Source: Skermanella aerolata KACC 11604
GTDB taxonomy: Bacteria > Pseudomonadota > Alphaproteobacteria > Azospirillales > Azospirillaceae
Reading direction: 5' to 3'
NCBI RefSeq assembly: GCF_000936425.1
Contig: NZ_AVFK01000047.1
Span: 1 to 32,000, forward strand
Length of the DNA stretch: 32,000 bases
The notes below the pieces were generated by a model that was given only the letters and a program-made list of their open reading frames with translations, did no database searches and was not told where the DNA came from. Below, in pieces: positions 9,604 through 28,172 of this stretch. The position numbers and the translations under genes are program-made. The first letter of the stretch is position 1. Each line of letters starts with the position of its first letter.

Positions 9604-9625
9604 CGGCCTGAAGATCCAAGGGGGA

Positions 9626-12544: not shown

Positions 12545-13459
12545 ATGAGCAACAGTATCACTGACCGCATCATCGACACGGTCGGGAACGCCGCAACCGG
12601 CGTTTTCGGGGCCAGGAGCCGTACTGAGGCCGGGGAGGCGAAGCAGGAACGCGACACCGCACTCAGTGAAGACCTGTTCAAGGCCAAGACGGTCTATATA
12701 GGCCTGGGGGTGATGTTCGCCTTCTATTTCTTCATCCGCATCTATGAACAGATCTTCGGCTGGTCGGCCGGTCTCGATGCATTCAGCGACGAATTCCAAA
12801 CCTATTGGATGACGATGCTTTGGATCGAGCTTCCGCTAGAGGGTCTGGCCTTCTTCGGCCTGATGGGCTACCTGTGGAAGACCCGCGACCGGGAGGTCAA
12901 CAAGGTCGAACCGCGCGAGGAACTGCGCCGGCACATGACCCTGCTGACATGGCTGGTCATGTACGCTTCGGCCCTGTACTGGGGCGCCAGCTTCTTCACG
13001 GAGCAGGACGGCACGTGGCACCAGACCGTGGTACGCGACACCGACTTCACGCCCAGCCACATCATCGAGTTCTACCTGAGCTATCCGATCTACATCATCA
13101 TGGGCTGCGGCGCCTTCATGTATGCCAAGACCCGGATTCCGATGTTCGCCAACGGCTACTCGGTGGCGTTCCTGATCCTGTTCATCGGACCGTTCATGAT
13201 CTTCCCCAATGTCGGCCTGAACGAGTGGGGCCATACCTTCTGGTTCATGGAAGAACTGTTCGTGGCCCCCCTGCACTGGGGCTTCGTGTTCTTCGGCTGG
13301 ATGGCGCTCGCGGTCTTCGGCGTCACCCTCCAGATCCTCGACCGCGTCCGGGAACTGGCCGTCGGCTACGTTCAGGACTGCACCTTCGACGAGACCGCGG
13401 CCGTGGCTGCCACCGGTCAGACGATCGAAGGCGCAGCGGTGCCGAAGGCGGCCGAATAA
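12545..13459 (+). CDS. pmoC: Particulate methane monooxygenase subunit C
   Basis: 304 aa with a GGAGG RBS. Conserved metal-site residues are present: EQDGTWHQ...TPSHIIEFY and NEWGHTFWF...PLHWGF. It carries a C-terminal extension of about 40 aa relative to typical PmoC of about 255-260 aa. Confidence 0.95.
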   Translation: MSNSITDRIIDTVGNAATGVFGARSRTEAGEAKQERDTALSEDLFKAKTVYIGLGVMFAFYFFIRIYEQIFGWSAGLDAFSDEFQTYWMTMLWIELPLEGLAFFGLMGYLWKTRDREVNKVEPREELRRHMTLLTWLVMYASALYWGASFFTEQDGTWHQTVVRDTDFTPSHIIEFYLSYPIYIIMGCGAFMYAKTRIPMFANGYSVAFLILFIGPFMIFPNVGLNEWGHTFWFMEELFVAPLHWGFVFFGWMALAVFGVTLQILDRVRELAVGYVQDCTFDETAAVAATGQTIEGAAVPKAAE

Positions 13460-13481
13460 TCGTCATCGATCGATCTCGACA

Positions 13482-13505
13482 GTAGCCCGCTTCAGGGCGG
13501 GCTAC
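13482..13505 (+). promoter_or_regulatory. Perfect 9-bp stem / 6-nt loop hairpin (GTAGCCCGC ttcagg GCGGGCTAC) in the pmoC-pmoA spacer
   Basis: Read directly. No U-tract follows, so it is more likely an mRNA processing or stability element than an intrinsic terminator. Confidence 0.5.
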
Positions 13506-13631
13506 CTCCTCCATCGGCAACAACGAAGGCAAAGAGGGCATCTTCGACCCCGGCGACCGGCGCTCTTGGCGGAAGCCTCGGAAAAACGAAAACCAATCAA
13601 AGGGCAGGAAACATCGAAGGAGAGCAATACA

Positions 13632-14447
13632 ATGTCAACGCAAGACCCGACTGCTTCGGATACCTTTCAGACCGCCTATGGCGGGACGACGGTCGAAACC
13701 GGACCCAAGGTCACCGGGCCGGCGCTCAAGTCCAAGGGCGAAGCCCTGGCGCTGGGCCGCACCATCGACTGGCTGCTGCTGTTCATCCTGTTCTTCGTCT
13801 GCCTCGCGTCGTTCCACATCCATGCGATGCTGACGATGGGCGACTGGGACTTCTGGGTCGACTGGAAGGACCGCCGCTATTTCCCGACCGTTCTGCCGAT
13901 CGTCCTGATCGCTTTCGCTGCCGCCGGACAAGCGTTCTTCTGGGAGAAGTTCCGGCTGCCGTTCGGGGCGACGTTCATGGTCGTCGGCCTGATCTTCGGT
14001 GAGTGGATCAACCGGTACTTCAATTTCTGGCTTTGGACCTATTTCCCGATCAACATGGTCTGGCCGACAATCCTGATCCCCAGCGCCCTGTTCCTCGACA
14101 TCGTGCTGCTCATCACCCGGAGCTACCTGATCACCGCGATCGTCGGGGCGATGGGCTGGGCGCTGCTGCTGTACCCCTCCAACTGGCCGGTCCTGGCGCA
14201 GTTCCACGTCCCACTCGAGAAGGACGGCCTGATCATGACGCTCGCTGACCTGATCGGCTTCGAATATGTCCGTACCGGCACGCCGGAATACATCCGCATG
14301 GTCGAACGCGGCACCATGAGGACCTTCGGCAAGGACGTCGTGCCGGTTTCAGCGTTCTTCGCGGGCTTCATTTCGATGATCGTGTACTTCGTCTGGGCAT
14401 TCGTCGGCCGCTGGTTCTCCACGACGCGCTTCATCGGCCGCATCTAG
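13632..14447 (+). CDS. pmoA: Particulate methane monooxygenase subunit A
   Basis: Internal ATG of track ORF 13566-14447, with GAAGGAG upstream; 271 aa. The core GDWDFWVDWKDRR...GEWINRYFNFW.WTYFPIN...TGTPEYIRMVE.GT.RTFGKDV.PVSAFF is classic PmoA. The N-terminus is about 20 aa longer than usual. Confidence 0.95.
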   Translation: MSTQDPTASDTFQTAYGGTTVETGPKVTGPALKSKGEALALGRTIDWLLLFILFFVCLASFHIHAMLTMGDWDFWVDWKDRRYFPTVLPIVLIAFAAAGQAFFWEKFRLPFGATFMVVGLIFGEWINRYFNFWLWTYFPINMVWPTILIPSALFLDIVLLITRSYLITAIVGAMGWALLLYPSNWPVLAQFHVPLEKDGLIMTLADLIGFEYVRTGTPEYIRMVERGTMRTFGKDVVPVSAFFAGFISMIVYFVWAFVGRWFSTTRFIGRI

Positions 14448-14548
14448 CGGCCCTTGGATGAACGGCTGCCGGTGCTGACACACCGACAGCCGCCCAGTGG
14501 ATCCAACGGTACGGATAGGCATGCACCATAAACGTCGGAGGAAAAGTT

Positions 14549-15832
14549 ATGAGGGGTTGGCAGAAGTTCAAGTCCATCGCGCGCAAAATCATGACACGCC
14601 GTGTCTTTGGACTGGCGATGGGAGCCGCGGTGGGACTGACGGCGAACGTGATGACGACGGCGCCGGCGGAGGCCCACGGCGAGAAGTCGCAGATGGCGTT
14701 CCTTCGGATGCGCACCGTCCAGTGGTACGATCTGAAGTGGTCGAAGACCGACGTCAACGTCAACGATGTCGTCGAGATATCCGGCAAGTTCAATGTCTTC
14801 TCCAATTGGCCGCAGGCCGTGATGAACCCGGACGTCTCGTTCCTGAACGTCGGCGAACCCGGTCCGGTATTCGTCCGCGAGGCCGCCTATATCAACGGTC
14901 AGCCGGTTCCCCGGTCGTTCTCTCTGACGCCCGGCGAGCGGTACGATTTCAAGATCCTGCTGCGGGCGCGGCGGGCCGGCGACTGGCACGTCCATACCCT
15001 GATGAACGTCGAGGGCGGCGGCCCCATCATCGGGCCGGGCGAGTGGCTCAAGATCAAAGGATCGATGGCCGACTTCATCAACCCCGAGACCACGCTGGAC
15101 GGGCGCAAGGTCGATATCGAGACCATGGGCATCGGCACGATCTACGGCTGGCACTTCCTCTGGTTCGTCGCCGGCGTGGCCTGGATCGGCTACTGGTTCT
15201 CACGCGGCGGCTTCGTCGGGCGGTACTTCGGCGTGGTCGCGGGCAAGGGCGACACGATGATCTCGCCCAAGGACGAGAAGATCGCCTTCGCGTCGCTGGC
15301 GGCGACGCTGGTCGTGGTCCTGGTCGGGTACAGCATGGGAGAATCCGGCAGCCCGCGCACGCTGCCGCTCCAGGCGGGCCTCCTGAACATCCCGGCGTCC
15401 GATCCGGCTCTCTACCCGAAGGACGTTTCCATCAAGTACGAGCGGGCGACCTACAAGGTCCCCGGCCGAGAACTCGACGTCACCTTGCAGATCACGAACA
15501 ACGGCACCTCGCCGCTGCGGATCGGCGAGTTCGCGACGGCGGGTGTCCGTTTCCTCAATCCCGATGTCATGAAGGAGCCGGTGAACTATCCGGACTACCT
15601 GCTGGCGCCCCAGGGCCTGTCGCTGTCCGACGCACAGCCGATCCAGCCGGGCACCACCAAGACCCTGGTCATCAAGGCGCAGGACGCGGCCTGGGACGTC
15701 GAGCGGCTTTCCGACCTCTACTACGACACGGACAGCAGCATCGGCGGCCTTCTGTTCCTGTTCGACGAACAGGGCAACCGCCACGTGCTCGAGATCGGCG
15801 GCCCTGCCGTTCCCGATTTCCAGACGACCTGA
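14549..15832 (+). CDS. pmoB: Particulate methane monooxygenase subunit B
   Basis: 427 aa with a GGAGGA RBS. The signal peptide ends AEA/HGEKSQ (canonical N-terminal His). The WHVH motif (GDWHVHTLMNV) is present. Confidence 0.95.
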   Translation: MRGWQKFKSIARKIMTRRVFGLAMGAAVGLTANVMTTAPAEAHGEKSQMAFLRMRTVQWYDLKWSKTDVNVNDVVEISGKFNVFSNWPQAVMNPDVSFLNVGEPGPVFVREAAYINGQPVPRSFSLTPGERYDFKILLRARRAGDWHVHTLMNVEGGGPIIGPGEWLKIKGSMADFINPETTLDGRKVDIETMGIGTIYGWHFLWFVAGVAWIGYWFSRGGFVGRYFGVVAGKGDTMISPKDEKIAFASLAATLVVVLVGYSMGESGSPRTLPLQAGLLNIPASDPALYPKDVSIKYERATYKVPGRELDVTLQITNNGTSPLRIGEFATAGVRFLNPDVMKEPVNYPDYLLAPQGLSLSDAQPIQPGTTKTLVIKAQDAAWDVERLSDLYYDTDSSIGGLLFLFDEQGNRHVLEIGGPAVPDFQTT

Positions 15833-15869
15833 ACCGGCACTGCTCGAACGTCCGCACTTGATGGGAAAT

Positions 15870-15906
15870 GCCGTCCTGGATCGCTGAAACGGCGGCTCAG
15901 GACGGC
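15870..15906 (+). terminator. Stem-loop after pmoB (GCCGTCCTG-N19-CAGGACGGC) followed by GATTTCTTC
   Basis: Perfect 9-bp arms, read directly, with a weak T-run. It may be a partial terminator or attenuator between pmoCAB and the downstream copper genes. Confidence 0.45.
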
Positions 15907-15984
15907 GATTTCTTCACCGCGGGGATGCCGCGCACCGGCTTCGATGCCCGCGCGTCTTCACCGCCCAGCCTTCGGTCAAGGATC

Positions 15985-16650
15985 ATGCATGTGCCCGTGA
16001 AAAAAACTCTCAGCCGGGCGATCGGCGCCGCTGCGCTTGTCCTGACCCTGCTGCATGCCCCGGATATCCAGGCTCACGGAGGGCTCAGCGTCGAAGAGGA
16101 TACCTGCGTCCTTCGCCTGGGACCGTACAAGATGCACTTCGTCGGCTACCAGCCCGACAGCACCAAGCAGGAATTTTGCGAAGACATACCTGAAACCGGC
16201 CACACCATCATCGTTCTCGACTACTTCGATCCGGCTTTGCGCAGAATGACGGCCGAAGTCAGGATCATCAAGGACGTCGGCGCACCCGAAACCGGCGACT
16301 TGACGCCGATCACGGTATTCCATCTGCCGCCGGCGCTTCATCCGACCGGCACCTTCAATTTCCAGTACAATTTCCCGCAGCCGGAAAAGTTCATCGGGCT
16401 GATAACGATCCGGGATGGCCAACGGGAATACGTGTCCCGTTTCCCGTTCTCGGTCGGCATGCCGACTTCAAACTGGAGCCTTACCCGCTATGCCGCGATC
16501 TTCGCGGGGCTGGTCATGGCGCTGCTGCTTTACTTCTGGTACCGCCGGCAACATCACACCGTCAAGGTCGCCAGCCCTGCGGGCGCTTCGCCGGACGACG
16601 GATGGGTGCGCGATATTCCGCCGCCGGACCCCAGGCGTGGGCCGCTTTAG
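15985..16650 (+). CDS. Exported, C-terminally membrane-anchored protein with predicted mature N-terminal His; occupies the pmoD position
   Basis: Internal ATG of track ORF 15868-16650, with AAGGA upstream. The signal peptide ends IQA/HGGLSVEEDTCVLRLGPYKMHF. A domain of about 150 aa contains 2 Cys and several His/Met. A TM helix (YAAIFAGLVMALLLYFWY) lies near the C-terminus. This architecture matches PmoD/AmoD-type proteins; homology is not verified. Confidence 0.6.
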   Translation: MHVPVKKTLSRAIGAAALVLTLLHAPDIQAHGGLSVEEDTCVLRLGPYKMHFVGYQPDSTKQEFCEDIPETGHTIIVLDYFDPALRRMTAEVRIIKDVGAPETGDLTPITVFHLPPALHPTGTFNFQYNFPQPEKFIGLITIRDGQREYVSRFPFSVGMPTSNWSLTRYAAIFAGLVMALLLYFWYRRQHHTVKVASPAGASPDDGWVRDIPPPDPRRGPL

Positions 16651-16656
16651 GCGAAA

Positions 16657-18435
16657 GTGGGACCGATGACCATGAAAAGGGCTCATCTGCTCACCATCGG
16701 GCTGACCTGCGGCGTGGCGGCGTTGGTGAACGGAGCGCTGGTGCTCCGTGACATGCCCGCGCTCGGACTGCTCAGCGCGACCGCGCAGGGTATCGACACG
16801 CGCATGCCGTCGATGCCTATGGCCTCGCCCGGCGAGCCTGAAGCGGTCTGCCCGCCGGGCAACGACGAGGCCCGCGCCGGCATCACCGTCGAGGGGGTGG
16901 AGATCGCCCCCTCGACCGCCTGCGTCGCCGACGATCCCTATGTCGTCGCGGCATCGGTCCTGGGCACCAACAACGTATCGGAAGATACGCTGATGCGCTC
17001 CGGCCTGTCGCGCGACGCCGTCATCAAGGGCCGCGACGGCGATCCCAACTACGTCGAGATCCACCTGGAGGTGGCCGAACTCAACGGGTTCAACCCTGAC
17101 GGCGGGCCGCCGCTCCCCGGCTACGCCATCGCCCCCGGCATCAAGCCCGGATTCTGGACATTCGCGCCGAAGCATCGCGGGATGTCCACGGTCAGTTCGG
17201 AATCCAGCGACGCCGGCCCGCTCCTCCGGATGCCGCCGCCCTCGATACGGGTCAAGGTCGGCGATACCCTGCGGATCGTACTGGAGAACACGCACTACCT
17301 GCCGCACACGATCCACCTGCACGGCGTCGATCACCCCTATCTGAACTCTGCCGGGGAAGGCAACGACGGCGTGCCGATGTTCGGCGAGGAAGCCGTCCAG
17401 CCCGGCGAAAGCCGGGTCTATGAGGCCAAGCTTCGGCATGCCGGCACGATGTACTACCACTGCCATGTCGATGAGCAGGCGCACGTCCCGATGGGACTGG
17501 CCGGCATGATAATCGTCGAGGAGAAACAGGCGGAAACGCCGGTCCAGACCCTCAACATCGGCGCCGGCGAGGTCAGGTACCGGTCGGGAGCGGTGCGCAG
17601 TGCCGGCTATGCCGGTGAACACGACCTCGTCTACGGCGATGTCCTGCGTGGGCTGAACAGCCTGCTTTCGACCTCGAACAATGCCCGCGTGATCGAGCGG
17701 CACATCCAGCAGGACTTCAACGTCACCCAGGCCCAGCCGGAGTATTTCCTGCTCAACGGCCGAGCATTTCCCTACACGCTGCGGGAATCCATGATCGCGA
17801 TCGAGCCGGGCCAGCGCGTTAAGCTGCATGTGCTCGACGCCAGCAGCGAATACATCGCCCTGCACACGCATGGTCACAAAGTTCTGATCACGCACCAGGA
17901 CGGGGTCGCGGTACCGCCCGGCGCCCGGACCATGCGCGACGTGGTGGACCTGATGCCGGGCCAGCGGGTGGACCTCGACCTCGATGCCACGGATGACGGC
18001 CTGCACAGCTACGGTCCCGGACTGTGGATGATCCACGATCACCGGCCCAAGGCTGTGACCAACAACGGGATCGGACATGGCGGAAGCATGACCTTCCTGG
18101 CCTATCCCGGATTCCTCGACACTCAAGGCATACCTCGCGCGGCGGCTGATTTGGCGAAGCTTTTCGTGCCGGGCCATTACGCGACCCATGCGTCGGGCAT
18201 GCCGATGCCGGACGGTGCCGGCTCCACGTCTGGTTTCGCCGGGACGGACTGGGCGGGAACCTTGAGGATGGTGGCGCTGCCCTTGCTGCTCACGGGAATG
18301 CTGGTGAGTTTCGGCAGCCTGTTCCGGCGGCGGCGCGCAAGTACTCATGGAGCGGAAGTGAACGGCCGGAACGAACGATCCCCTTCGATCAGAACGATCC
18401 ATTCAGCGAAAACAGCGAAAGGACGACGGAAATGA
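16657..18435 (+). CDS. Two-domain-type multicopper oxidase with a C-terminal membrane anchor
   Basis: Copper motifs occur in the order HTIHLHG (17305-17325), YHCHVDEQAHVPMG (HCH at 17458-17466), HTHGH (17863-17877) and IHDH (18031-18042). The T1 plus half of the trinuclear ligands are therefore in the first cupredoxin domain and the remaining His pairs in the second. The N-terminal region is Met-rich (MPSMPMASPG). A hydrophobic C-terminal helix (LRMVALPLLLTGMLVSFGSLF) is followed by RRRR. The start is uncertain: GTG 16657, or ATG 16666 or 16672. Confidence 0.85.
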   Translation: MGPMTMKRAHLLTIGLTCGVAALVNGALVLRDMPALGLLSATAQGIDTRMPSMPMASPGEPEAVCPPGNDEARAGITVEGVEIAPSTACVADDPYVVAASVLGTNNVSEDTLMRSGLSRDAVIKGRDGDPNYVEIHLEVAELNGFNPDGGPPLPGYAIAPGIKPGFWTFAPKHRGMSTVSSESSDAGPLLRMPPPSIRVKVGDTLRIVLENTHYLPHTIHLHGVDHPYLNSAGEGNDGVPMFGEEAVQPGESRVYEAKLRHAGTMYYHCHVDEQAHVPMGLAGMIIVEEKQAETPVQTLNIGAGEVRYRSGAVRSAGYAGEHDLVYGDVLRGLNSLLSTSNNARVIERHIQQDFNVTQAQPEYFLLNGRAFPYTLRESMIAIEPGQRVKLHVLDASSEYIALHTHGHKVLITHQDGVAVPPGARTMRDVVDLMPGQRVDLDLDATDDGLHSYGPGLWMIHDHRPKAVTNNGIGHGGSMTFLAYPGFLDTQGIPRAAADLAKLFVPGHYATHASGMPMPDGAGSTSGFAGTDWAGTLRMVALPLLLTGMLVSFGSLFRRRRASTHGAEVNGRNERSPSIRTIHSAKTAKGRRK

Positions 18436-19004
18436 TTGGCGGACGCTGCGGAATTGCGCTTCTTGCCTTCGCTTTGCCGATACTGCCTGCGATGGTCGTG
18501 GCACACCCTTACATCGTGGGGTCGGAAGTCGAGCCCGGAGAACATTTCGAAGGCAAGCTCGTGCTGACCCATGACTGCAACAATCAGCCGACTGTCGAAG
18601 TGGTGCTGCGGATGCCCAGGGAGGCGACCCATATCGAGGCGGACAGCCCCAAGGGCTGGAAGAGTTCGGTCGATCCGGCGAAGGGCGAGATCGTCTGGCA
18701 AGGCGGCCCGACACCGGACCGGATGGAGCTTGGGGTATCGTTCGAAGTCCCGCAGGTCGCGGAAGGCACGAAACTCTACATCCCGGTCGTCCAGCGCTGC
18801 ACGGGTGGCGAGGTCCAGCGCTGGGTGGAAATGCCCGACGCGGAAAAGAAGCAGGAAGACTTAGGCTTCCCGGCAGCCTTCGTGATCGTCGGTAAAAAGG
18901 CCGACCTGCCCGAGGGTGAGGAAGCAGCCGACGAGGCGGCGGCGGGCGGCGGGCATAAGCATCATCACCACGGACATCACGGCGATAAGAAGCCGTCGCA
19001 ATAG
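18432..19004 (+). CDS. YcnI/DUF1775-like periplasmic copper-binding protein with an acidic, poly-His tail
   Basis: The ATG overlaps the MCO stop (ATGA at 18432-18435). The signal peptide ends VVA/HPYIVG. The DUF1775-like core reads ...PKGWKSSVDPAKGEIVWQGG...LYIPVVQRCTGGEVQRWVE. The C-terminus is EGEEAADEAAAGGGHKHHHHGHHGDKK and has no TM helix. Confidence 0.75.
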   Translation: MIGGRCGIALLAFALPILPAMVVAHPYIVGSEVEPGEHFEGKLVLTHDCNNQPTVEVVLRMPREATHIEADSPKGWKSSVDPAKGEIVWQGGPTPDRMELGVSFEVPQVAEGTKLYIPVVQRCTGGEVQRWVEMPDAEKKQEDLGFPAAFVIVGKKADLPEGEEAADEAAAGGGHKHHHHGHHGDKKPSQ

Positions 19005-19047: not shown

Positions 19048-21348
19048 ATGCGACAGGGCGGCACTTCAGCAGGGGGAAGACCCTTCCGGGCGGCATTGAT
19101 CTTCATGCTGATCCTGTGCTGGTTCTGTGCTGCCGGCAGCGCCCCGGCGCGGGCCCACGCGATGCTCGTGGGGACCCAGCCCGCCGCCGATGCGCAGCTC
19201 GAACGCGCGCCCGACCGGTTTCAGTTCGAGTTCAACGAGCCGGTCCTGCCGCTCCGGTTCAGCCTGTTCGACCAGACCGGCGCTCCGCTGGCGCTCAATC
19301 CGCCGCAGCGGGAGCCCGGCGACCGCATCGTGCTGCGGCCGGAGGCGGCGCTGGGATCCGGGACCTATCTGCTGAGCTATCGCGTCACCTCGGCGGACGG
19401 CCACCCAGTCGCCGGCTCGGTCCGGTTCCAGGTCGGCGCCGCCGAAACCTCAGCCATCCGCAGCGAGGCTCTCGCCCGCCTGCAAGCCGAAGCGGGGACC
19501 GAGGCATGGCGATGGACCGTCGTCACGCTGCGCTGGCTGCTCTACGCCTCCCTGATCTTCGGCGTGGGCGGCGCCATCGCCCTGGCCCTCATCAAGGCTC
19601 CGGCGTCGATCATGGGGCCGGCCCGCAAGATTGCGCTCCGAGCCTGCGGCTGCGCCGCCGTCCTGCTGGTGCCCTATCACCTGTTCGCCACTGCGGCACT
19701 CCTGGGGGCGACCGGTTTCGCGGTGCTGATGCCGGGAACATGGTGGCTCATGGTGTCGGGGCCGCGTGCCTGGACTCTGGCGGCGACGGCCGCCGGACTG
19801 GCCGCCATCATCTGGCAGCTGTCGAAGGCAGGCAACAAGCTGGTGACGGCGGCTGGCGCCATCGTCGTGGCGCTGGGATTCACCCTGACCGGCCACACCG
19901 CCAGCGCGGAGCCGGCGGCCCTCGTCCGCTCGGCGCTGATCCTCCACATCCTGACGGGTGCGTTCTGGCTGGGGTCCCTGCCTCTCCTGCTGCTGGCCGC
20001 GCGGAGGCTGACGGCGCCGGAGGCCAAGACCGTTCTGGGACGGTTCGCCATCGTCGCGGGGCCGGCCGTCCTGGTGCTGCTGGCCTGCGGCGGGCTGATG
20101 ACCTGGGTTCAGACCGACGGCGACCTGACGGCGCTGTGGACGTCCGACTACGGGGTGCGTCTGAGCGTCAAAGTCCTGCTCGTGTTGGGGCTCCTGGCGG
20201 TCGCGGCCGTCAATCGGGCGAAGCTTACCCCGTCCTTGGCGACGAGGCAGTCGCCCGGCGGCAAGCGTTGGCTCGTCCGGCTGCTGACGGTCGATCACGG
20301 GCTGGCTTTCGTCGTGGTCGCGGCGACGGCGATCCTGTCGCTCGACCCTCCGCCCCGTCTCGCCATGCTTCACGGCACGCACGGCATCAGCCCTTTGGCG
20401 ATGGGATCGGAGATGCGGCTGAGCGCCGGGGAGGAGAAGCTGACTGTCCTGTTCTCCCCCAGCGTGACCGACAGGACGACGGTGACGCTGGACTATCTCG
20501 ACGCCGAGGGCAAGCCGGCGGCGGTCGGGGAAGCGGATCTGCGTCTGGCCCTGCCGGAACGCGGCGTCGAGGAAATGCAGTGGCGGGCGCATCGTGACGC
20601 CGGCGGCAAGCTGCGCGCCGAGAACGTGACCGTTCCCTTCGCCGGCCGCTGGACGCTGGCGGTCGATCTGTTCGTCGACGACTTCACCAAGCGGACCTTC
20701 ATCGGGGAGGCGCGGTTCGACGCAGGCCCCGCGGGGCACGACATGGCCGCGATGGGTGGCGGCGCGCATGAGGGGCCGCACGTCATGATCAGCGATCTCG
20801 ACGGCGCCGTCATGAACGAGAACGCGGACCATCTGCCGATCGACTGCAAGAGCCTGACCGGCGATATCGCGATCACCCTGCATGCCGGCAAGCGCTATGC
20901 CCTGCCCGGCTTCGTGTTCGGCTACGACCGCTATCAGTGGGATGTGCCTGCGTGCAGCCGCGTGACCGTGACGATGGTCAACGAGGACCATGTCCGCCAC
21001 CAGTTCATGATGCACGGCCTGCCGCGCTATCTCTATCCGCAGGGCATGATCCACCTGGAGGCCGATGGCGGAACGAGCCGGCGCGCGACCTTCATCGTGC
21101 CGGCGGCGCCGAAGACCTATTTCGTCCACTGCGACATGGCGCAGCACACTGAGAAGGGCCTGAAGGCCCAGTTGAAGGTAGCGGGAGGCAACGGAGACCT
21201 CCCCAACATCCCCGGAATCACTGCACCCAATCCAGCGGAGGCCGGCCCTGTCCAATGGGTTCCGGCGACCTACCCGACGATCATCGCGGGCCTGCTGCTG
21301 CTCGTGGTGCCGCTGATCTTCGGCGCCGCCGCGTTTGCGCGGCGCTGA
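19048..21348 (+). CDS. copCD: CopC-CopD fusion (YcnJ-like) extended by a YtkA/FixH-like domain, a cupredoxin-like domain and a terminal TM helix
   Basis: 766 aa. The signal peptide ends [12 protein letters not shown], followed by a CopC fold ([20 protein letters not shown]). About 8 hydrophobic helices (CopD) follow, then a beta-rich segment (LTVLFSP...RWTLAVDLF). A His/Met-rich linker ([18 protein letters not shown]) precedes the cupredoxin-like VRHQFMMHG...[15 protein letters not shown] (Cys codon at 21130-21132). The final TM helix is [19 protein letters not shown]. Confidence 0.85.
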
Positions 21349-21410: not shown

Positions 21411-22046
21411 ATGGCCTGGTGGAAGAAGCACAGCAACGGAAACGGAAACGGAAACAACAACAGGGTCGGCGATAGCTCGATCCACATACACCCCTCGGTG
21501 GATCACGGCGTCGTCCCCGGCAGCGCCAACTTCGGCGGCGGGACCTTGCGCTGCCATTGCGGCCGCGATCCGGTGGAGGTCACGATCAAGGGCAACTCCG
21601 CCCATAACCATGTCTGCGGCTGCACCAAGTGCTGGAAACCGGACGGAGCGCTGTTCTCGATGGTCGCGGTCGTGCCGCGCGACAATCTCCGGGTCACGGC
21701 CAACGCCAACAAGCTGAAGATCGTCGATCCCTCGGCGGCGATCCAGCGCCACGCCTGCGTCGAATGCGGCGTCCACATGTACGGCAGGATCGAGAACAAG
21801 GGACACCCGTTCTACGGCCTGGATTTCATCCACACCGAACTGTCGAACCAGGTGGGATGGAGCGCTCCGGAATTCGCGGCCTTCGTCTCGTCGATCGTCG
21901 AGGCCGGGACCCGGCCCGACGACATGCCGGCGATCCGCGCCCGCCTGCGGGAACTGAGACTGGAGCCGTACGACTGCCTGTCTCCCGCCTTGATGGACCT
22001 GATCGCCGCCCATACCGCCAAGTCCAAGCGTCTTGAGACGGTCTGA
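21411..22046 (+). CDS. gfa: S-(hydroxymethyl)glutathione synthase (glutathione-dependent formaldehyde-activating enzyme)
   Basis: Internal ATG of track ORF 21255-22046, with GGGAGAGGAAAA upstream. Signature motifs [44 protein letters not shown] and [13 protein letters not shown] match Gfa as I remember the Paracoccus enzyme. There is an extra N-terminal [20 protein letters not shown]. Confidence 0.88.
21435..21461 (+). repeat. In-frame microsatellite (AACGGA)x3 (AAC)x3 encoding NGNGNGNNN
   Basis: Read directly in the 5' end of gfa. Confidence 0.9.
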
Positions 22047-22079: not shown

Positions 22080-22535
22080 ATGGAAGGACGCGGCAGGCGC
22101 ATGGATCAGAGCGGAACCACGGGGCGCGTGTCCGGGACACGACGCATGGGATGGATCGGCATCGTCGCCGTCCTTGCCATGCTCGTGCGGGCGCTGGTCC
22201 CGGAGTTCTCCATGGCGCTTGCCGGCCCCGCCGGGCAGCATCCCGTCGAGCGTCCGATTGCCGCCGTTTCGGCCGACTGCCATGACGGCGCTTCCTTGGC
22301 CCAGCCGGGTCCCAAGCCCGCTTACGATCCCGGTTCCGATCCTGGTCCCGGCCAGCCATATGGCCCCCATTGTCCGTTCTGTCTGGTTCAGCATGCGGCC
22401 GCCCTGCCCCCGCCGCCGCAGCCCGAAATCTTCATTCCCGCTGAGGACGCCAACTCGCCGTCGCTGCCGGAAACGGATGCAGCACCTCAGCGCCGGCTGC
22501 CGAGCCCGATCCAGCCGAGGGCGCCGCCGGTCTGA
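22080..22535 (+). CDS. DUF2946-like small exported/membrane protein (HCPFC motif)
   Basis: N-terminal hydrophobic segment WIGIVAVLAMLVRALV, a Pro-rich middle, and a GPHCPFCLVQHAA motif characteristic of DUF2946. The start is uncertain (22080, 22101 or 22146). Confidence 0.6.
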   Translation: MEGRGRRMDQSGTTGRVSGTRRMGWIGIVAVLAMLVRALVPEFSMALAGPAGQHPVERPIAAVSADCHDGASLAQPGPKPAYDPGSDPGPGQPYGPHCPFCLVQHAAALPPPPQPEIFIPAEDANSPSLPETDAAPQRRLPSPIQPRAPPV

Positions 22536-22594
22536 ACTTCCCGACCGAACATCCACGATACCCGCTGAAACTCTGACGCGACGGAGTTCCGACC

Positions 22595-23983
22595 ATGACC
22601 CATGTCCTGGGCCAAGCGCGCCCTTACGCCGCCGAGGCGGCACCAGCCGGTAAGCTGTACCGCGCCATCTGGCGCTGGCATTTCTATGCCGGCCTGCTTG
22701 CAGTCCCCTTCATGATCCTGCTGGCCGTCACCGGCTCGCTTTATCTGTTCAAGGATGAGATCGACAACTCAGTCTTCGCCTACCGCAACGTCGTCGCCGA
22801 AGCGGCGACGCCTCCCCTGCCCGTCAGCGTCCTCGCCGCAACGGCAGCGGATGTCGTTCCCGGATCGGCGGCGACCGTCTACCGGACGCCACGCAGCGCC
22901 ACCGGCTCCGCCATGGTCACCGTCAAGACCGATACGGACGGCGACAGCGGCGGCAACATTGTGTTCCTGAACCCCTATTCTGGAGCGGTCCTCGACGTCG
23001 TTCCGGCCCATGGCGAATTCCAGTGGGTGGTCAAGCGGCTGCATAGCCTGGAATATTTCGGCGACTACACCAACCGGATCATCGAAGCCGTCGGCGGCTT
23101 CGCCCTGGTGCTGGTGGTGACCGGGATCTATCTCTGGTGGCCACGCGGGCAATCGGGCGGCGTTCTTACGGTCCGGGCGCAGCCGGCGCAGCGGGTCTTC
23201 TGGCGCGACCTTCATGCGGTCACGGGCGCCGTGGCCGGTCTGGTGATCTTCTTCCTCGCCCTCAGCGGAATGCCGTGGTCAGGGTATTGGGGCAATGCCG
23301 TCAACAAGATCGCCAGCGACAATGGCGTCGGTTATCCGAAGTTCCTGTGGGACGACGTACCCGTTTCGAAGGTCCCGGCCAAGGACGCCTTGGGCAAGGT
23401 AGGCTGGACGGTCGAGAACGCGCCGATGCCGCTTTCCGGAGCACCTTCCGGCGGCGGCGCTCCGGTCGGCATAGACAGGGCGGTCGAGGTCTTCAAGGCG
23501 CGCGGCATCGGTCCGGGTTTCGATGTCACGCTGCCGGACGGCAAGACCGGCGTCTACTCGGCATCGCTGTTCCCCGACATGATCCAGGACCAGCGCATGA
23601 TCCACCTGGACCAGTATACCGGAGAACCGCTCGTCGACCTGAACTTCGCCGACTATGGCGGTTTCGCCAAGGCGGTCGAACTGGGCATCAACATCCACAT
23701 GGGGCAGGAGTTCGGGCTGGCGAACCAATTGCTGATGCTGACGACCTGCCTTGCCATCATCCTGACGTCGGTGGCGGCGGTGATCATGTGGTGGAAGCGC
23801 CGGCCGAGCGGCAAATTGGGCATTCCACCCTATCCACGGGGCCGCGCCGCTTATATAGCACTCTGGGTCGTGGCGGCCATCTTCGGCATCGCTTTCCCGA
23901 TTACCGGGCTCGCCATACTGGCGATGCTGCTGATCGACGCCGCGATCATGGCGATCGCGTCGCGCAGGCGTTCACCGGCTTAG
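22595..23983 (+). CDS. PepSY-associated TM-helix protein (PiuB-like)
   Basis: 462 aa. It has the LYRAIWRWHFYAGLLAVPFMILLAVTGSLYLF opening typical of this family, a large periplasmic region and C-terminal TM helices. ACGGAG lies upstream of the ATG. Confidence 0.75.
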   Translation: MTHVLGQARPYAAEAAPAGKLYRAIWRWHFYAGLLAVPFMILLAVTGSLYLFKDEIDNSVFAYRNVVAEAATPPLPVSVLAATAADVVPGSAATVYRTPRSATGSAMVTVKTDTDGDSGGNIVFLNPYSGAVLDVVPAHGEFQWVVKRLHSLEYFGDYTNRIIEAVGGFALVLVVTGIYLWWPRGQSGGVLTVRAQPAQRVFWRDLHAVTGAVAGLVIFFLALSGMPWSGYWGNAVNKIASDNGVGYPKFLWDDVPVSKVPAKDALGKVGWTVENAPMPLSGAPSGGGAPVGIDRAVEVFKARGIGPGFDVTLPDGKTGVYSASLFPDMIQDQRMIHLDQYTGEPLVDLNFADYGGFAKAVELGINIHMGQEFGLANQLLMLTTCLAIILTSVAAVIMWWKRRPSGKLGIPPYPRGRAAYIALWVVAAIFGIAFPITGLAILAMLLIDAAIMAIASRRRSPA

Positions 23984-24046: not shown

Positions 24047-24529
24047 TCACGCGTCGACCTTGCGGCACTCCTCCGCGCAGGAAGCGCAGGCGTCCGCACA
24101 GGCCTTGCAGGTCGCATGCTTCTCGTGTTTCCGGCATTCCTTCTCGCAATCCTGGCAGACTTGCAAAACCACCTTGCTCATGGCCGGGACGTAGCTGGAG
24201 CCCATGGCGGAAAGCTCGGCGAGGCTGCCTGTCGCGGCTATCAGTTCGCGAACCTTGCTTGCACAGACTGCAAGGGTGGTGTCACCCCCCGCGAAGGTTT
24301 CGAGGCAATGATTAAGGCATACTTCGCCCGTCGTGACGCAGTGGGTGGCCTCCTTCATGAGGTCGCCGTACTTCAGCTTGCCCATGCCGGCGTGGTCATG
24401 CCCGTGCTGGTGTTCGTGCACATGCTCGCCGCCTGCCGGCTTTTCCGGCTGCTGTGCGGCAGCTATCGCGGTCGTAGCAAGGACGCTGGTCGCCCCCGCC
24501 GTCAGGAAGATGCGTCGGTCCATTTCCAT
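24047..24529 (-). CDS. csp1: Csp1-type four-helix-bundle copper storage protein, Tat-exported
   Basis: ATG at 24529 with GGAGG 6 nt upstream (the track ORF start at 24718 is too early). Tat motif MDRRIFLTAGA. His-rich stretch HVHEHQHGHDH. Twelve Cys in heptad-like spacing end ...CKACADACASCAEECRKVDA, closely matching my memory of Methylosinus trichosporium Csp1 (...CKACGEACQACAEECHKVAA). Confidence 0.85.
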   Translation of the reverse strand: MEMDRRIFLTAGATSVLATTAIAAAQQPEKPAGGEHVHEHQHGHDHAGMGKLKYGDLMKEATHCVTTGEVCLNHCLETFAGGDTTLAVCASKVRELIAATGSLAELSAMGSSYVPAMSKVVLQVCQDCEKECRKHEKHATCKACADACASCAEECRKVDA

Positions 24530-26584: not shown

Positions 26585-27690
26585 GACGTTGGTGCAGAAA
26601 TCAGCGGGCGGGCAGACTTCGCCCATTGCCACGGCGGTCAGGCAATCCGACGGGACACCGGCATGCCGAGGTCGGTCATGATGTTGATGACCTTGCATCC
26701 GGCGGTTGCTTCGACCTTCTGGGCACGCAGACTCCGGGCCCGCAGGCTGCGGCCGATCAGGGCCTTGTACCGAAACACCGCCACTTCGACCAAGGATCTT
26801 TTCCCGTAGCCGACGGCCCGCTGCCAACCCAGCCGTCCGTGGTCGGCGATCCACTGGATATGGCGGTCGCGCTGGGTCGGGTCGGTGTCCACCTTGGCGC
26901 TCAGCACCGCGGTCGAACGGGGCGGGATGACCACAGCGACGTCAGGCGTATGGTCGGTGACGGACCGGTATGTCGGCTCCCCGTCGTAGGCGCCGTCAGC
27001 CAACACCGCGGAGATCGGGCGGTCGATCTGCTCGAGCAGCGGACCGACCAGGGACGCGTCGCCGTCGTCCGTGGTGGTCAGCTCAGAGGCGAGGATCTCA
27101 CCGCTCCCGGGATCGACCGCCAAGTGCAGTTTCCGCCAGGTCCGATGTGGCTTCCCGCCGTGCTTCTCGTGCAGCCATTCACCGGCTCCGACCACCTTCA
27201 GGCCGGTGCTGTCGATCACGACGTGGACCGGTTCCTTCGCCTTCCTCAGCGCCGTCGCGACACCCAGGCCGGCGCTACGGCGCGAGAGCGTTGTGTGGTC
27301 CGGAACCGGCAACTCCAGGCCGAGCAGGCCCATGACCGAGCTCAGCAAGCCTTCGGTCTGGCGCCACGGCCGGCCGAACGCCAACCTCAGCATCAGCCCG
27401 GTCTCGATGGCGACGTCGGAATAGGCCCGCGGCCGACCCCGCCGCCCGGTCGCCGCCGGCATCCAAGCCGCGATTGCTTCGGGCGTCACCCACACAGTCA
27501 GGCTGCCGCGCCTACGCAGCGCCGCGTCGTACTCGGCCCAGTTCTCGATTCTGTACCGGGCTTTCGGGATCCTGTGACGACGCGGTTCATTCGCCTTGTA
27601 CGGCATGCGGCACTCTGCTCCAGCGGGCTATCTCTATACCCACCTGCCCATCGCCGCGATAGCCCTCATCGCCATTTGTGCACCAACGTC
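26585..27690 (-). mobile_element. Intact IS5-family (IS903-group) insertion sequence, 1106 bp
   Basis: The terminal inverted repeats are GACGTTGGTGCAGAAAT (26585-26601) and the reverse complement of 27674-27690 (GACGTTGGTGCACAAAT), identical at 16/17 positions. They contain an AAATCAG-type end like IS903. There is a single transposase ORF. The flanking 9-mers differ (gcgcggacg vs tcggtgcaa), so there is no target-site duplication. Confidence 0.8.
26638..27606 (-). CDS. IS5/IS903-group DDE transposase
   Basis: 322 aa. It is colinear with IS903 transposase as I remember it (NW.EYD.AL..RGSLT.W......AW...RGRP..YSD.AI.T......F.L..RQ.EG...S; VIDSTGLKV.G.GEW...KHG...R.WRKLHLAVD; ADGAYD; GMP.S.RIA end). 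Confidence 0.9.
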   Translation of the reverse strand: MPYKANEPRRHRIPKARYRIENWAEYDAALRRRGSLTVWVTPEAIAAWMPAATGRRGRPRAYSDVAIETGLMLRLAFGRPWRQTEGLLSSVMGLLGLELPVPDHTTLSRRSAGLGVATALRKAKEPVHVVIDSTGLKVVGAGEWLHEKHGGKPHRTWRKLHLAVDPGSGEILASELTTTDDGDASLVGPLLEQIDRPISAVLADGAYDGEPTYRSVTDHTPDVAVVIPPRSTAVLSAKVDTDPTQRDRHIQWIADHGRLGWQRAVGYGKRSLVEVAVFRYKALIGRSLRARSLRAQKVEATAGCKVINIMTDLGMPVSRRIA

Positions 27691-28172
27691 TCGGTGCAAG
27701 ACATCGGTCGCCTCCCTGAATGCGATTGGGCAACAGTATTTTACCAAACCGGCTGCCGCCTACACCGTCATGGAATCTGTTTGAGGCGATCATTTCCTGA
27801 ACGGGCGGTCTAGCTCCGCCTGGGCGAAATACGCCGATGCCTTGCGCAGGATCTCGTTTGCCTGGCGCAGTTCGCGGACCTCGCGCTCCAGCGCCTTGAT
27901 CCGTTCCCGGTCGTCCGTCGTCGGGCCGGCCCGCTTGCCATGATCGCGCTCGGCTTGCCGGACCCAGCCCCGCAGCGTCTCCGCCGTGCAGCCGATCTTC
28001 GCCGCGATTGAGCTGATCGCTGCCCACTGCGAGACGTGTTTTCCGGAGTGCTCGAACACCATCCGGGCCGCGCGCTCGCGCACTTCAGGGGCGTATTTGG
28101 GTGATGTCTGCTTCGTCATGATAACCCCAGTCTCTCAAGAAATGGCATCTCCGATAAACCCGGTACGATTCA
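27691..28172 (-). mobile_element. IS3-family remnant: left IR, intact orfA and the first ~30 codons of orfB, truncated by the IS903-like element
   Basis: The minus-strand end starts TGAATCGTACCGGGTTTATCGGAGATGCC at 28172 (a TG...-type IS3 IR). An orfB-like frame, ...[23 protein letters not shown] (compare MIAFID.HR..YGVEPIC.VL), runs into position 27691. Confidence 0.65.
27790..28119 (-). CDS. IS3-family transposase OrfA (HTH)
   Basis: 109 aa: [21 protein letters not shown]...[22 protein letters not shown]...[34 protein letters not shown], the typical IS3 orfA pattern. Confidence 0.85.

Follow-up and report, generated by a model that had tools for sequence, protein, structure and literature searches.

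We found in Skermanella aerolata KACC 11604 a single protein that physically combines a CopC/CopD-type copper importer with a type-1-like cupredoxin, and which most likely represents a YcnJ-type copper uptake protein plus a captured cupredoxin. Its gene is part of a copper membrane monooxygenase (CuMMO) operon in the window, by which we mean the whole analysed stretch of 32,000 nucleotides (contig NZ_AVFK01000047.1, positions 1 to 32,000). The captured domain belongs to a large, previously uncharacterised cupredoxin family. Because this family normally partners a copper oxidase of the MCO type, copper uptake for the adjacent CuMMO is probably tied to a redox step.

Architecture of the fusion protein

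The fusion ORF (19048..21348; this and all further features lie on the + strand) starts with ATG and encodes 766 amino acids, which comprise a signal peptide, a CopC domain, a CopD domain, a YtkA-like domain, a His/Met-rich linker, a cupredoxin domain and a transmembrane anchor. An earlier note on this DNA had read the same succession, from CopC-CopD through a YtkA/FixH-like segment and a His/Met linker to a cupredoxin and a final transmembrane helix, and Pfam, alignments, AlphaFold, Foldseek and hydropathy all bear it out. The reading frame is continuous across the junction of the YtkA-like domain and the cupredoxin, with zero ambiguous bases. An identical gene call is present in NCBI record GCA_007991775.1 (contig BJYZ01000047.1), and a copy in a Logan assembly retains the 766-aa ORF with 3 residues changed relative to the window protein. 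The fusion is thus genuine and not an assembly artefact.

The predicted signal peptide (aa 1-36, 19048..19155) includes a hydrophobic segment (aa 15-33) and ends in SAPARA, which is followed by HAMLVG. Cleavage after the A-R-A motif would expose His37 as the N-terminal residue of a predicted histidine brace. The CopC domain (aa 37-129, 19156..19434) matches Pfam PF04234 with 73.9 bits against a cut-off of 23.3 (E 2.2e-20) and carries ligands of the Cu(II) type, His37 after the ARA motif and Asp117-Gly-His119 (D-x-H), as checked residue by residue; its sequence contains no Met-rich Cu(I) site. In the CopD membrane domain (aa ~150-435, 19495..20352), hydropathy indicates multiple hydrophobic segments, and Pfam PF05425 matches aa 329-430 with 68.2 bits (cut-off 32.1, E 9e-19). 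The NCBIfam CopD equivalog model aligns with aa 156-435, at a score of 91.6 against a threshold of 195, so that this domain is to be seen as a CopD-family member and not as the P. syringae equivalog. The third module, a YtkA/FixH-like periplasmic beta-sandwich (aa ~455-558, 20410..20721), matches Pfam FixH weakly (19.1 bits, under the cut-off of 23) and PF13115 (YtkA) not directly. Residues 470-558 align by BLASTP with a region of the homologue P0128 that lies above the Pfam YtkA threshold (33% identity, E 2e-12), and the AlphaFold model of this module is an eight-strand beta sandwich with a strand pLDDT of ~85-92.

These first three modules, the YtkA-like one probably included, occur in the same order in YcnJ of B. 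subtilis, with which the window protein also shares the histidine-brace Cu(II) ligands of the CopC domain and an adjacent ycnI (DUF1775) gene. Homologues of the YcnJ type, 520-570 aa in length, align over 67-71% of the window protein at an identity of ~30-36%. YcnJ stops after the YtkA domain, whereas the window protein adds the His/Met-rich linker, a T1-type cupredoxin and a transmembrane anchor. The gene context differs as well: YcnJ is encoded in a ycnKJI operon, the window protein in a CuMMO operon together with an MCO. YcnJ's CopC domain and YcnI bind and exchange Cu(II) (PMC12362106, PMC13344008), and YcnJ has no known reductase, as a recent study of B. subtilis states (PMC13344008).

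A cupredoxin family that accompanies MCO genes

The additional part begins with the linker (aa 560 to ~588-592, 20725..20811), which contains 3 His and 4 Met within 33 residues and is homologous to the His/Met-rich N-terminal region of stand-alone members of the cupredoxin family. The cupredoxin domain itself (aa 589-716, 20812..21195) was assigned to this MCO-associated family by AlphaFold, Foldseek and alignments. Modelled alone, it reached a pLDDT of 93.7 and a pTM of 0.87, and Foldseek matched it with a probability of 1.00 to C-terminal domains of MCOs, auracyanin, NirK, AcoP and the CuA domains of N2OR, so that the C-terminal region, suggested to be a cupredoxin in the earlier note, does model as this Greek-key fold. 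The domain-alone search replaced a fold search with a two-domain segment (aa 440-766), whose matches, to two-domain laccases and N2OR, had a high RMSD and mixed both beta-sandwiches. The window domain scores 17.1 bits with Pfam Cu-oxidase_2, below the threshold of 20.4, which a stand-alone Methylobacter homologue passes with 23.6 bits. A PDB sequence search with the family profile returned no solved close relative (best match E 0.022). Hydropathy indicates a C-terminal transmembrane anchor (aa ~743-763, 21274..21336) with its helix at aa 745-763, followed by Arg-Arg, and the stand-alone homologues have the same tail anchor; the cupredoxin would face the periplasm.

The family consists of membrane-anchored proteins of ~220 aa and is present at at least 593 genome loci, mostly of methanotrophs, Binatia and other CuMMO carriers, with 680 protein matches at 50-65% identity to the window cupredoxin. 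Stand-alone members are annotated as 'copper oxidase' or 'cupredoxin domain-containing protein'. Residues C600, C636, H651, M654, H656, H669, E671, H694, C695, D696 and H700 are invariant in the family, and the window domain, which shares 61-76% domain identity with 120 members, has kept 27 of 27 invariant columns.

Most characteristic is the genomic company of these proteins. An MCO homologue is encoded immediately upstream of the cupredoxin in ~75 of 80 loci, the order pmoCAB(-pmoD)-MCO-cupredoxin is found in 12 of the 80, and in Methylobacter the two genes overlap. Most MCO-cupredoxin pairs of Methylococcales have no adjoining copper-transport or pmo genes. The two proteins are also found fused (P0240, P0264, P0268), and more distant proteins combine cupredoxin, CusF and MCO (P0337, P0341). 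As fusion partners of the cupredoxin we recorded CopCD in five cases and CusF in two, but never Pmo subunits.

Stand-alone cupredoxins, for example those of Nitrosococcus watsonii, N. halophilus, Methylobacter and Binatia, resemble the window domain in sequence (50-65% domain identity, same invariant residues), in the His/Met-rich leader, in the C-terminal anchor and in their MCO partner gene. Unlike the window domain, they are separate secreted proteins of ~220 aa, are encoded directly after the MCO and possess an axial Met in 85-88% of cases. In the window, the CopCD-YtkA fusion takes the place of their signal peptide, and ycnI and copCD are located between MCO and cupredoxin. The signal peptide was lost cleanly at the fusion junction, with none left between the YtkA-like module and the cupredoxin. 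In the literature, we did not find a description of the fusion or of the MCO-cupredoxin pair in CuMMO organisms, but a survey of the CopC family (PMC5260838) may list such an architecture.

Gene neighbourhood and related fusion loci

The genes pmoC-pmoA-pmoB-pmoD (12545..16650), a CuMMO operon with a PmoD homologue, stand immediately upstream, within the same closely packed run of genes. They are followed by the partner gene of the fusion, two genes upstream of it in the same operon, which encodes a membrane-anchored two-domain MCO of type C (16657..18435); this MCO is complete and is closest to the blue copper oxidase 3G5W of N. europaea. The intervening gene for a YcnI/DUF1775 Cu(II)-binding protein (18432..19004) has a 4-nt overlap with the MCO stop, and its counterparts adjoin all four fusion genes. 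Downstream of the fusion ORF, a PepSY_TM protein is encoded, a member of a family that includes haem reductases. A pMMO-like CuMMO has been reported for Skermanella, which is not a methanotroph (PMC6215863).

Four further loci contain the architecture of the window protein, completely or in part. The four modules are colinear in L001, L083 and L084, at ~49-63% identity to the window protein, and P0214, P0223 and P0221 are CopC-CopD-FixH-cupredoxin fusions. The triad of MCO, YcnI and fusion genes is kept in four independent loci, three of which lie beside pmoCAB; at L083, the triad is present and pmo genes are absent within 18.8 kb. In a weakly resolved neighbour-joining tree of the domain, all CopCD-fused members fall among stand-alone proteins of the Leu type, and such a tree would be compatible with either one or two origins of the fusion.

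Predicted type 1 copper site and putative second metal site

The ligand loop of the window cupredoxin reads H694-C695-D696-M697-A-Q-H700-T-E-K-G-L705 (21127..21162). Residues H651, C695 and H700 occur without exception in 120 of 120 homologues and align with the ligands of auracyanin and MCOs, and in the AlphaFold model C695 follows a strand while H700 lies in a short helix preceding the last strand. The His/Cys/His ligand set proposed in the earlier note thus occupies canonical positions. Two other copper centres were rejected, a CuA site on the ground that a single Cys is present in the ligand loop, and a red copper site of the nitrosocyanin type because the spacing is C-x4-H-x4-L and not C-x2-H-x4-H as in nitrosocyanin.

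The typical axial Met is absent from the window domain, which instead has Leu705 (codon CTG, 21160-21162). As this position holds Met in 106 and Leu in 14 of 120 homologues, it is the family's axial position, with Leu as a genuine variant, so that both codon and homologue alignment confirm the replacement that had been noticed in the window alone. Leu is a recurrent minority (~12-15%) in the family, the remaining members having Met. An axial Leu is well known from fungal laccases, and laccase sites that naturally have Leu or Phe there count as T1 sites; the Leu is expected to raise the T1 potential. Of the three-coordinate, high-potential site predicted previously, the axial Leu therefore stands, but three-coordination is not assured, because the Leu co-varies with a Met at Cys+2, which is found in 19 of 25 Leu-type members as opposed to 7 of 157 Met-type members and corresponds to M697 in the window protein.

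By its sequence motifs, the window cupredoxin is MCO/NirK-derived and not plastocyanin-like; the plastocyanin/pseudoazurin-type framing that it had been given gives way to membership in the MCO-neighbour family. Its best structural matches are the T1 domains of CueO, Pediococcus laccase, 3G5W and NirK, with which it shares the C-x4-H-x4-(M/L) loop, the His before the Cys and a first-His motif in register. In hhalign alignments, H651-x2-M654-x-H656 corresponds to H-x2-H-x-H and H694-C695-D696 to H-C-H, and both motifs are in register with the T1/trinuclear-cluster motifs in domain 1 of the neighbouring MCO itself, within an overall weak match (E 0.1). Unlike MCOs and NirK, the window cupredoxin is a single domain that has HCD for HCH and H-x2-M-x-H for H-x2-H-x-H. 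Two of the four trinuclear-cluster His are hence replaced, by the invariant Met (M654) and Asp (D696), and the domain therefore cannot build a trinuclear cluster. Since two of the inter-domain copper ligands are retained, with Met and Asp invariant at the other two positions, a second metal site (H656, H694, M654, D696, perhaps H669) is likely. This putative site had escaped the earlier note. Auracyanin and AcoP, which are membrane-tethered electron carriers, are comparable in size and fold (TM-scores 0.56-0.66) at an identity of only 15-19%; neither the additional invariant His/Met/Asp set nor the partnership with an MCO, both of which characterise the family of the window domain, is present in them.

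Possible function of the fusion protein

We tentatively propose, at chances that we would put a little below even, that the fused cupredoxin relays electrons in the periplasm between copper ions and the MCO, and that this relay is physically coupled to Cu(II) uptake of the YcnJ/YcnI type, by which the neighbouring CuMMO is supplied. The O2-reducing MCO (16657-18435) is the most likely electron-transfer partner because its homologues are conserved neighbours of the cupredoxin and sometimes fused to it. The YcnJ-type uptake protein would have captured its tail-anchored cupredoxin by in-frame fusion; this cupredoxin belongs to the conserved two-gene module of MCO and cupredoxin that typifies carriers of copper membrane monooxygenases. 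A copper ion could be bound by the linker and the vestigial inter-domain site (H656, H694, M654, D696, perhaps H669), from where an electron would cross the His694-Cys695 bridge into the domain's own T1 centre (H651, C695, H700; axial L705/M697) and continue to that of the MCO, the enzyme that would reduce O2. The histidine-brace sites of CopC and YcnI might then take up the resulting Cu(II), which would go on either to CopD or, by way of YtkA, to targets in the periplasm, thereby metallating the adjacent CuMMO/PmoD; we infer this link of cupredoxin and uptake system to CuMMO metallation. As for the direction of electron flow, we favour Cu(I) oxidation before capture over Cu(II) reduction for import, since the MCO partner reduces O2 and the CopC and YcnI sites are Cu(II)-specific. 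The earlier note had suggested redox-coupled Cu(II)/Cu(I) uptake: the connection between redox chemistry and uptake is upheld, but its Cu(II)-reducing direction is disfavoured by the MCO partner.

A complete MCO has no obvious need of a separate cupredoxin for Cu(I) oxidation. Furthermore, most Methylococcales pairs do not adjoin copper-transport or pmo genes, and the substrate of the pair could therefore be other than copper. Since copper import into the cytoplasm calls for Cu(I) in the end, reduction would be favoured, which counts against a relay by oxidation.

This demand for Cu(I) would be satisfied by a cupric reductase, in which the cupredoxin takes electrons from the respiratory chain or from some other donor and passes them to the Cu(II) on CopC or YcnI, and CopD carries the resulting Cu(I). 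The Cu(II) nature of the CopC and YcnI sites, the lack of a known reductase in YcnJ-type importers, the tethering of the cupredoxin beside CopC, CopD and YtkA and the downstream PepSY_TM gene would all suit such a function. We nevertheless consider it unlikely, as the conserved and sometimes fused partner is an O2-reducing MCO, which takes up electrons and does not donate them, the axial Leu is expected to raise the potential and thus to make the site a poorer reductant, and a conserved cytochrome or quinol-binding partner was absent from the loci examined.

Somewhat less probable again is a non-redox role, with the T1-like site and the linker passing or buffering copper among YcnI, CopC, YtkA, CopD and the CuMMO, so that the cupredoxin would be an additional chaperone domain. 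The abundance of His and Met in the linker and the CusF fusions of distant relatives agree with this, as does the fact that many cupredoxin-fold proteins of the operon (CopC, YcnI, PmoD) are binders and not redox proteins. However, the full T1 ligand set with MCO-type spacing and the invariant His-Cys bridge are a signature of electron transfer, and the coupling to an MCO is nearly always kept.

An improbable reading, finally, is that the MCO-cupredoxin pair is an accessory of the CuMMO, which gives electrons to the monooxygenase, takes them from it or detoxifies a by-product such as hydroxylamine, and that the CopCD fusion reflects co-localisation only. The loci with the order pmoCAB-pmoD-MCO-cupredoxin and the concentration of the family in CuMMO-carrying lineages point in this direction, and an archaeal MCO oxidises hydroxylamine, as reviewed recently (PMC13058606). 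Yet the cupredoxin is fused to modules for the handling of copper ions and never to Pmo subunits, the L083 triad has no pmo genes in its 18.8 kb, and most Methylococcales pairs have no pmo genes close by. That the long ORF is a decaying pseudogene, a frameshift joining of copCD and cupredoxin genes, or a joining of separate genes in assembly, as the earlier note had considered, is so improbable as to be effectively refuted already: two frame changes interrupt the L001 homologue, whose contig label indicates 4x coverage, but the ORF is kept in an independent assembly that differs in 3 residues, unrelated metagenomes hold intact fusions of 766 and 722 aa (~58-63% domain identity), all functional residues are conserved in the window cupredoxin, and the loss of the stand-alone signal peptide at the junction is clean.

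Significance

Copper acquisition and delivery in organisms with copper membrane monooxygenases, and the oxidation state of copper during its passage through CopC/CopD-type importers, are the two questions touched by the electron relay that we propose. The fusion gene gives an importer of this kind a physically attached copper centre of the redox type, and the relatives of the gene link the unstudied MCO-cupredoxin pair, present in hundreds of genomes of methanotrophs, nitrifiers and alkane oxidisers, to the handling of copper ions. The system is experimentally tractable, with a soluble domain of 140 aa, an MCO as defined partner and Met/Leu variants that occur naturally, and the exchange Met705Leu together with Val/Ile697Met provides a natural series for axial-ligand tuning in a single-domain cupredoxin.

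Beyond this, it is conceivable, if rather doubtful, that the MCO-adjacent cupredoxin represents an unrecognised kind of copper protein, in which a T1 centre and an exposed His2-Met-Asp(-His) site for substrate copper are connected by a His-Cys bridge, and in whose Leu subtype the axial thioether has moved to Cys+2 (M697). Together with the two-domain MCO, it could constitute a copper redox machine of the periplasm, from which CopCD/YcnI uptake is fed and copper membrane monooxygenases thereby obtain their metal. If this is true, the fusion in the window would be the key that reveals a dedicated MCO-cupredoxin machine for copper redox chemistry.

Architecture and authenticity of the fusion protein

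We found the fusion gene (19048-21348, + strand) to be an uninterrupted frame of 766 codons with zero ambiguous bases, which continues unbroken across the junction of the third and fourth modules. The four-module architecture that an earlier note had read from this frame is borne out. In profile searches, CopC was recognized at residues 37-129 (73.9 bits against a cut-off of 23.3) and CopD at residues 329-430 (68.2 bits against 32.1), with the NCBIfam CopD model aligning over residues 156-435; FixH (463-539) and Cu-oxidase_2 (683-712) matched below threshold. The third module is YtkA-like, as judged by transitive homology: residues 470-558 align with P0128, a 565-aa CopC-CopD protein (33% identity, E 2e-12), and the aligned part of P0128 scores above the Pfam YtkA threshold. 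The closest full-length relatives are CopC-CopD-YtkA/FixH proteins of 520-570 aa, which cover 67-71% of the query. A His/Met-rich linker (residues 560-592, three His and four Met) precedes the cupredoxin, and a strong hydrophobic helix (745-763) forms the C-terminal end. CopC has all three of its ligands, His37, Asp117 and His119, and its sequence shows no Met-rich Cu(I) site. Since CopC is probably exported and the number of CopD helices probably even (about eight as counted by sequence inspection, not cleanly resolved by a crude hydropathy scan), the YtkA-like domain, linker and cupredoxin would be periplasmic, anchored by the last helix with the Arg-Arg tail inside.

The fusion is real. An identical 766-aa gene call exists in the public record, and an independent Logan assembly holds a copy of the same length with only three residue differences. 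The metagenome contig L001 carries a syntenic operon with a colinear homologue of residues 5-758, although two frame changes break this copy, whose contig carries a 4x coverage label. When 1.84 billion representative proteins were searched exhaustively by profile, further four-module proteins emerged, two intact (P0214, 766 aa; P0223, 722 aa) and one partial (P0221). We therefore give next to no credence to an artefactual origin of the long frame, and conclude that the architecture is rare but evolutionarily maintained.

The fourth module and its family

As the earlier note expected, the C-terminal domain models as a cupredoxin: the AlphaFold model of the domain alone (residues 583-722) is confident (pLDDT 93.7, pTM 0.87), and Foldseek matched it with probability 1.00 to type 1 (T1) copper-bearing C-terminal domains of multicopper oxidases (MCOs; Pediococcus laccase and CueO, 20-23% identity), to auracyanin (TM 0.62-0.66) and to NirK, AcoP and the CuA domains of N2OR. 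No solved structure was similar at sequence level (best E-value 0.022). A search with residues 442-766 yielded 680 proteins, nearly all of about 220 aa and 50-65% identical. In these, a signal peptide and a His/Met-rich stretch precede the cupredoxin domain, and a membrane anchor lies at the C-terminus; where named, they are called "copper oxidase", "multicopper oxidase" or "cupredoxin domain-containing protein". The fourth module thus belongs to an uncharacterised cupredoxin family with at least 593 loci in species-representative genomes. Methylococcales methanotrophs account for about 50 of the best 80 loci, the others including Binatia, Methylomirabilota, Sinimarinibacterium and unclassified Proteobacteria; Nitrosococcus members appeared in the protein search.

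Residues invariant in 120 homologues include, in the numbering of the fusion protein, C600, C636, N645, D647, R650, H651, M654, H656, M667, H669, E671, H694, C695, D696, H700, E702, K703 and G704. Aligned by profile with domain 1 of the window's MCO, the domain matches weakly overall (E 0.1), but the motifs are in register: VRH651-QF-M654-M-H656-G pairs with LPH-TI-H-L-H-G, V-H694-C695-D696 with Y-H-C-H, and H700 with the second T1 His. H651, C695 and H700 are thus the predicted T1 ligands. At the trinuclear-cluster positions of MCOs, His is kept at two of four (H656, H694), the other two being an invariant Met and an invariant Asp. The same two positions bind the type 2 copper of NirK, where the H-x4-H and H-C pattern recurs. 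The domain may therefore have a second metal site, probably exposed at the surface and joined to the T1 centre by the His-Cys bridge. The family is akin to the T1 domains of MCOs and NirK but lacks the full trinuclear/type 2 ligand set that defines them.

The axial leucine

The ligand loop reads exactly as first reported, H694-C695-D696-M697-A-Q-H700-T-E-K-G-L705, with Leu705 (codon CTG, 21160-21162) five residues after H700; in CueO, the axial Met likewise lies five residues past the second T1 His. Leu is the minority state, found in 14 of the best 120 protein hits (106 Met), at 10 of 82 loci (72 Met) and in 25 of 182 family sequences (157 Met). All five CopCD-fused members are of the Leu type, as are some stand-alone proteins, including ones in pmoCAB-MCO-cupredoxin operons (e.g. 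loci L041 and L070). The axial residue co-varies family-wide with the Cys+2 position (Met697, 21136-21138), which is Met in 19 of 25 Leu-type and 7 of 157 Met-type sequences (Fisher p = 3e-15, not corrected for phylogeny). In CotA laccase, the equivalent residue (Ile494) is packed against the T1 copper on the side opposite to the axial Met. M697 could therefore supply a thioether, and Met at Cys+2 may represent a compensatory relocation of this group. Given this co-variation, the three-coordinate, high-potential site deduced earlier from the Leu is reasonable but not secure. Taken by itself, the axial Leu is of minor importance.

Genomic context

Between pmoC and PepSY_TM, neighbouring genes are spaced -4 to 106 nt apart, in the order pmoC, pmoA, pmoB, PmoD homologue, MCO, ycnI, fusion gene, gfa, DUF2946, PepSY_TM. 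The PmoD homologue (260-aa ORF, 15868-16650, +; PDB 6CPD, E 8e-21) has no Pfam match and features a C-x8-M...C motif as well as a TM helix at the C-terminus; this Cx8M class commonly lies near MCO genes (PMC6189053). The type-C two-domain MCO (592 aa, 16657-18435, +) matches best to PDB 3G5W (N. europaea blue copper oxidase, E 1.7e-30) and 2ZWN, and shows all HxH/HCH motifs on inspection of its translation. It is extended by about 190 aa at the N-terminus and bears a hydrophobic anchor at the C-terminus. Its stop overlaps by 4 nt with the start of ycnI (18432-19004, +). A His-rich tail, GGGHKHHHHGHHGDKK, closes the encoded YcnI/DUF1775 protein, in which hydropathy detected no C-terminal TM helix, whereas the B. 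subtilis protein has one.

Directly downstream of the fusion gene lies gfa, encoding a glutathione-dependent formaldehyde-activating enzyme (21411-22046, +; NCBIfam 326-330 bits), which hints at formaldehyde production by the copper membrane monooxygenase (CuMMO) pathway. It is followed by the DUF2946 and PepSY_TM pair (22101-23983, +), whose PepSY_TM protein could be a copper-relevant membrane reductase; DUF2946 also stands upstream of ycnI-copCD in two ordinary cassettes (L086, L087). A Csp-family copper storage gene (24047-24529, -) has a twin-arginine-like leader in its longer ORF (MDRRIFLTAGA), which suggests an exported Csp1-type protein. Upstream of pmoC, a sigma-54 activator precedes two adjoining Cpn60/GroEL-like ORFs of 197 and 324 aa (7399-11314, +), which have the appearance of one chaperonin gene that is split or frameshifted; the syntenic activator in L001 has a MimR_N domain, and the arrangement resembles that of alkane/acetone monooxygenase clusters. 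IS-type transposase genes (DDE_Tnp_1, HTH_Tnp_1; 26638-28119, -) about 5 kb downstream of the copper cluster, and several transposases beside the fusion gene of L083, suggest that the module is mobile.

Partners and proposed function

Elsewhere, a homologue of the window's MCO (41-53% identity) lies directly upstream of the stand-alone cupredoxin gene at about 75 of 80 related loci, 12 of which show the order pmoCAB(-pmoD)-MCO-cupredoxin; the pair overlaps by 4 nt in Methylobacter tundripaludum. Among fusion loci, L001 mirrors the window, L083 reads YcnI-fusion-MCO and L084 MCO-YcnI-fusion-pmoCAB. Of the non-fused YcnJ-type genes, the closest are found in ordinary clusters that have neither MCO nor cupredoxin (L085, YcnI-CopCD; L086, DUF2946-YcnI-CopCD-PCuAC). 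In the simplest history, the insertion of a ycnI-copCD(ytkA) cassette separated the MCO gene from the cupredoxin gene, whose product lost its signal peptide on becoming fused. Cupredoxins of this family are also fused to the C-terminus of two-domain MCOs (P0240, P0264, P0268), with HCD changed to HCS or HCG and, in P0264, the MCO fusion inspected, Asn at the H669 position; more distant relatives (P0337, P0341) combine cupredoxin, CusF repeats and MCO in one protein. The family is thus fused to an O2-reducing copper oxidase and to modules that handle copper ions (CopC/CopD, CusF), and never, among the fusions found, to monooxygenase subunits.

In its first three modules the protein probably belongs to the YcnJ-type CopC-CopD-YtkA importers, and it would work like them. 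In such relatives, histidine braces hold exchangeable Cu(II) both in YcnI and in the CopC domain of YcnJ; function depends on residues of CopC and CopD, the YtkA domain aids CuA assembly, and YcnJ has no known reductase (PMC12362106, PMC13344008). We tentatively favour, at somewhat less than even odds, a model in which the cupredoxin connects bound copper ions to the MCO as an electron relay. It would oxidise Cu(I) that had been caught at the His/Met linker or at the putative second site, the electron would pass to the MCO, and the resulting Cu(II) would enter the YcnI/CopC/CopD pathway, supplying the adjacent CuMMO and PmoD. Reduction of Cu(II) for import would fit the cell's need for Cu(I) but is at odds with the MCO partner, and we consider it unlikely; a non-redox copper relay is somewhat less probable again. 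A CuMMO-directed electron carrier or by-product oxidase is the least plausible role.

Neither the four-module fusion nor the MCO-cupredoxin pair was described in the literature that could be searched, the coverage of which is incomplete. More valuable than the axial Leu is the connection of copper uptake in CuMMO organisms with a large and unstudied MCO-cupredoxin module.
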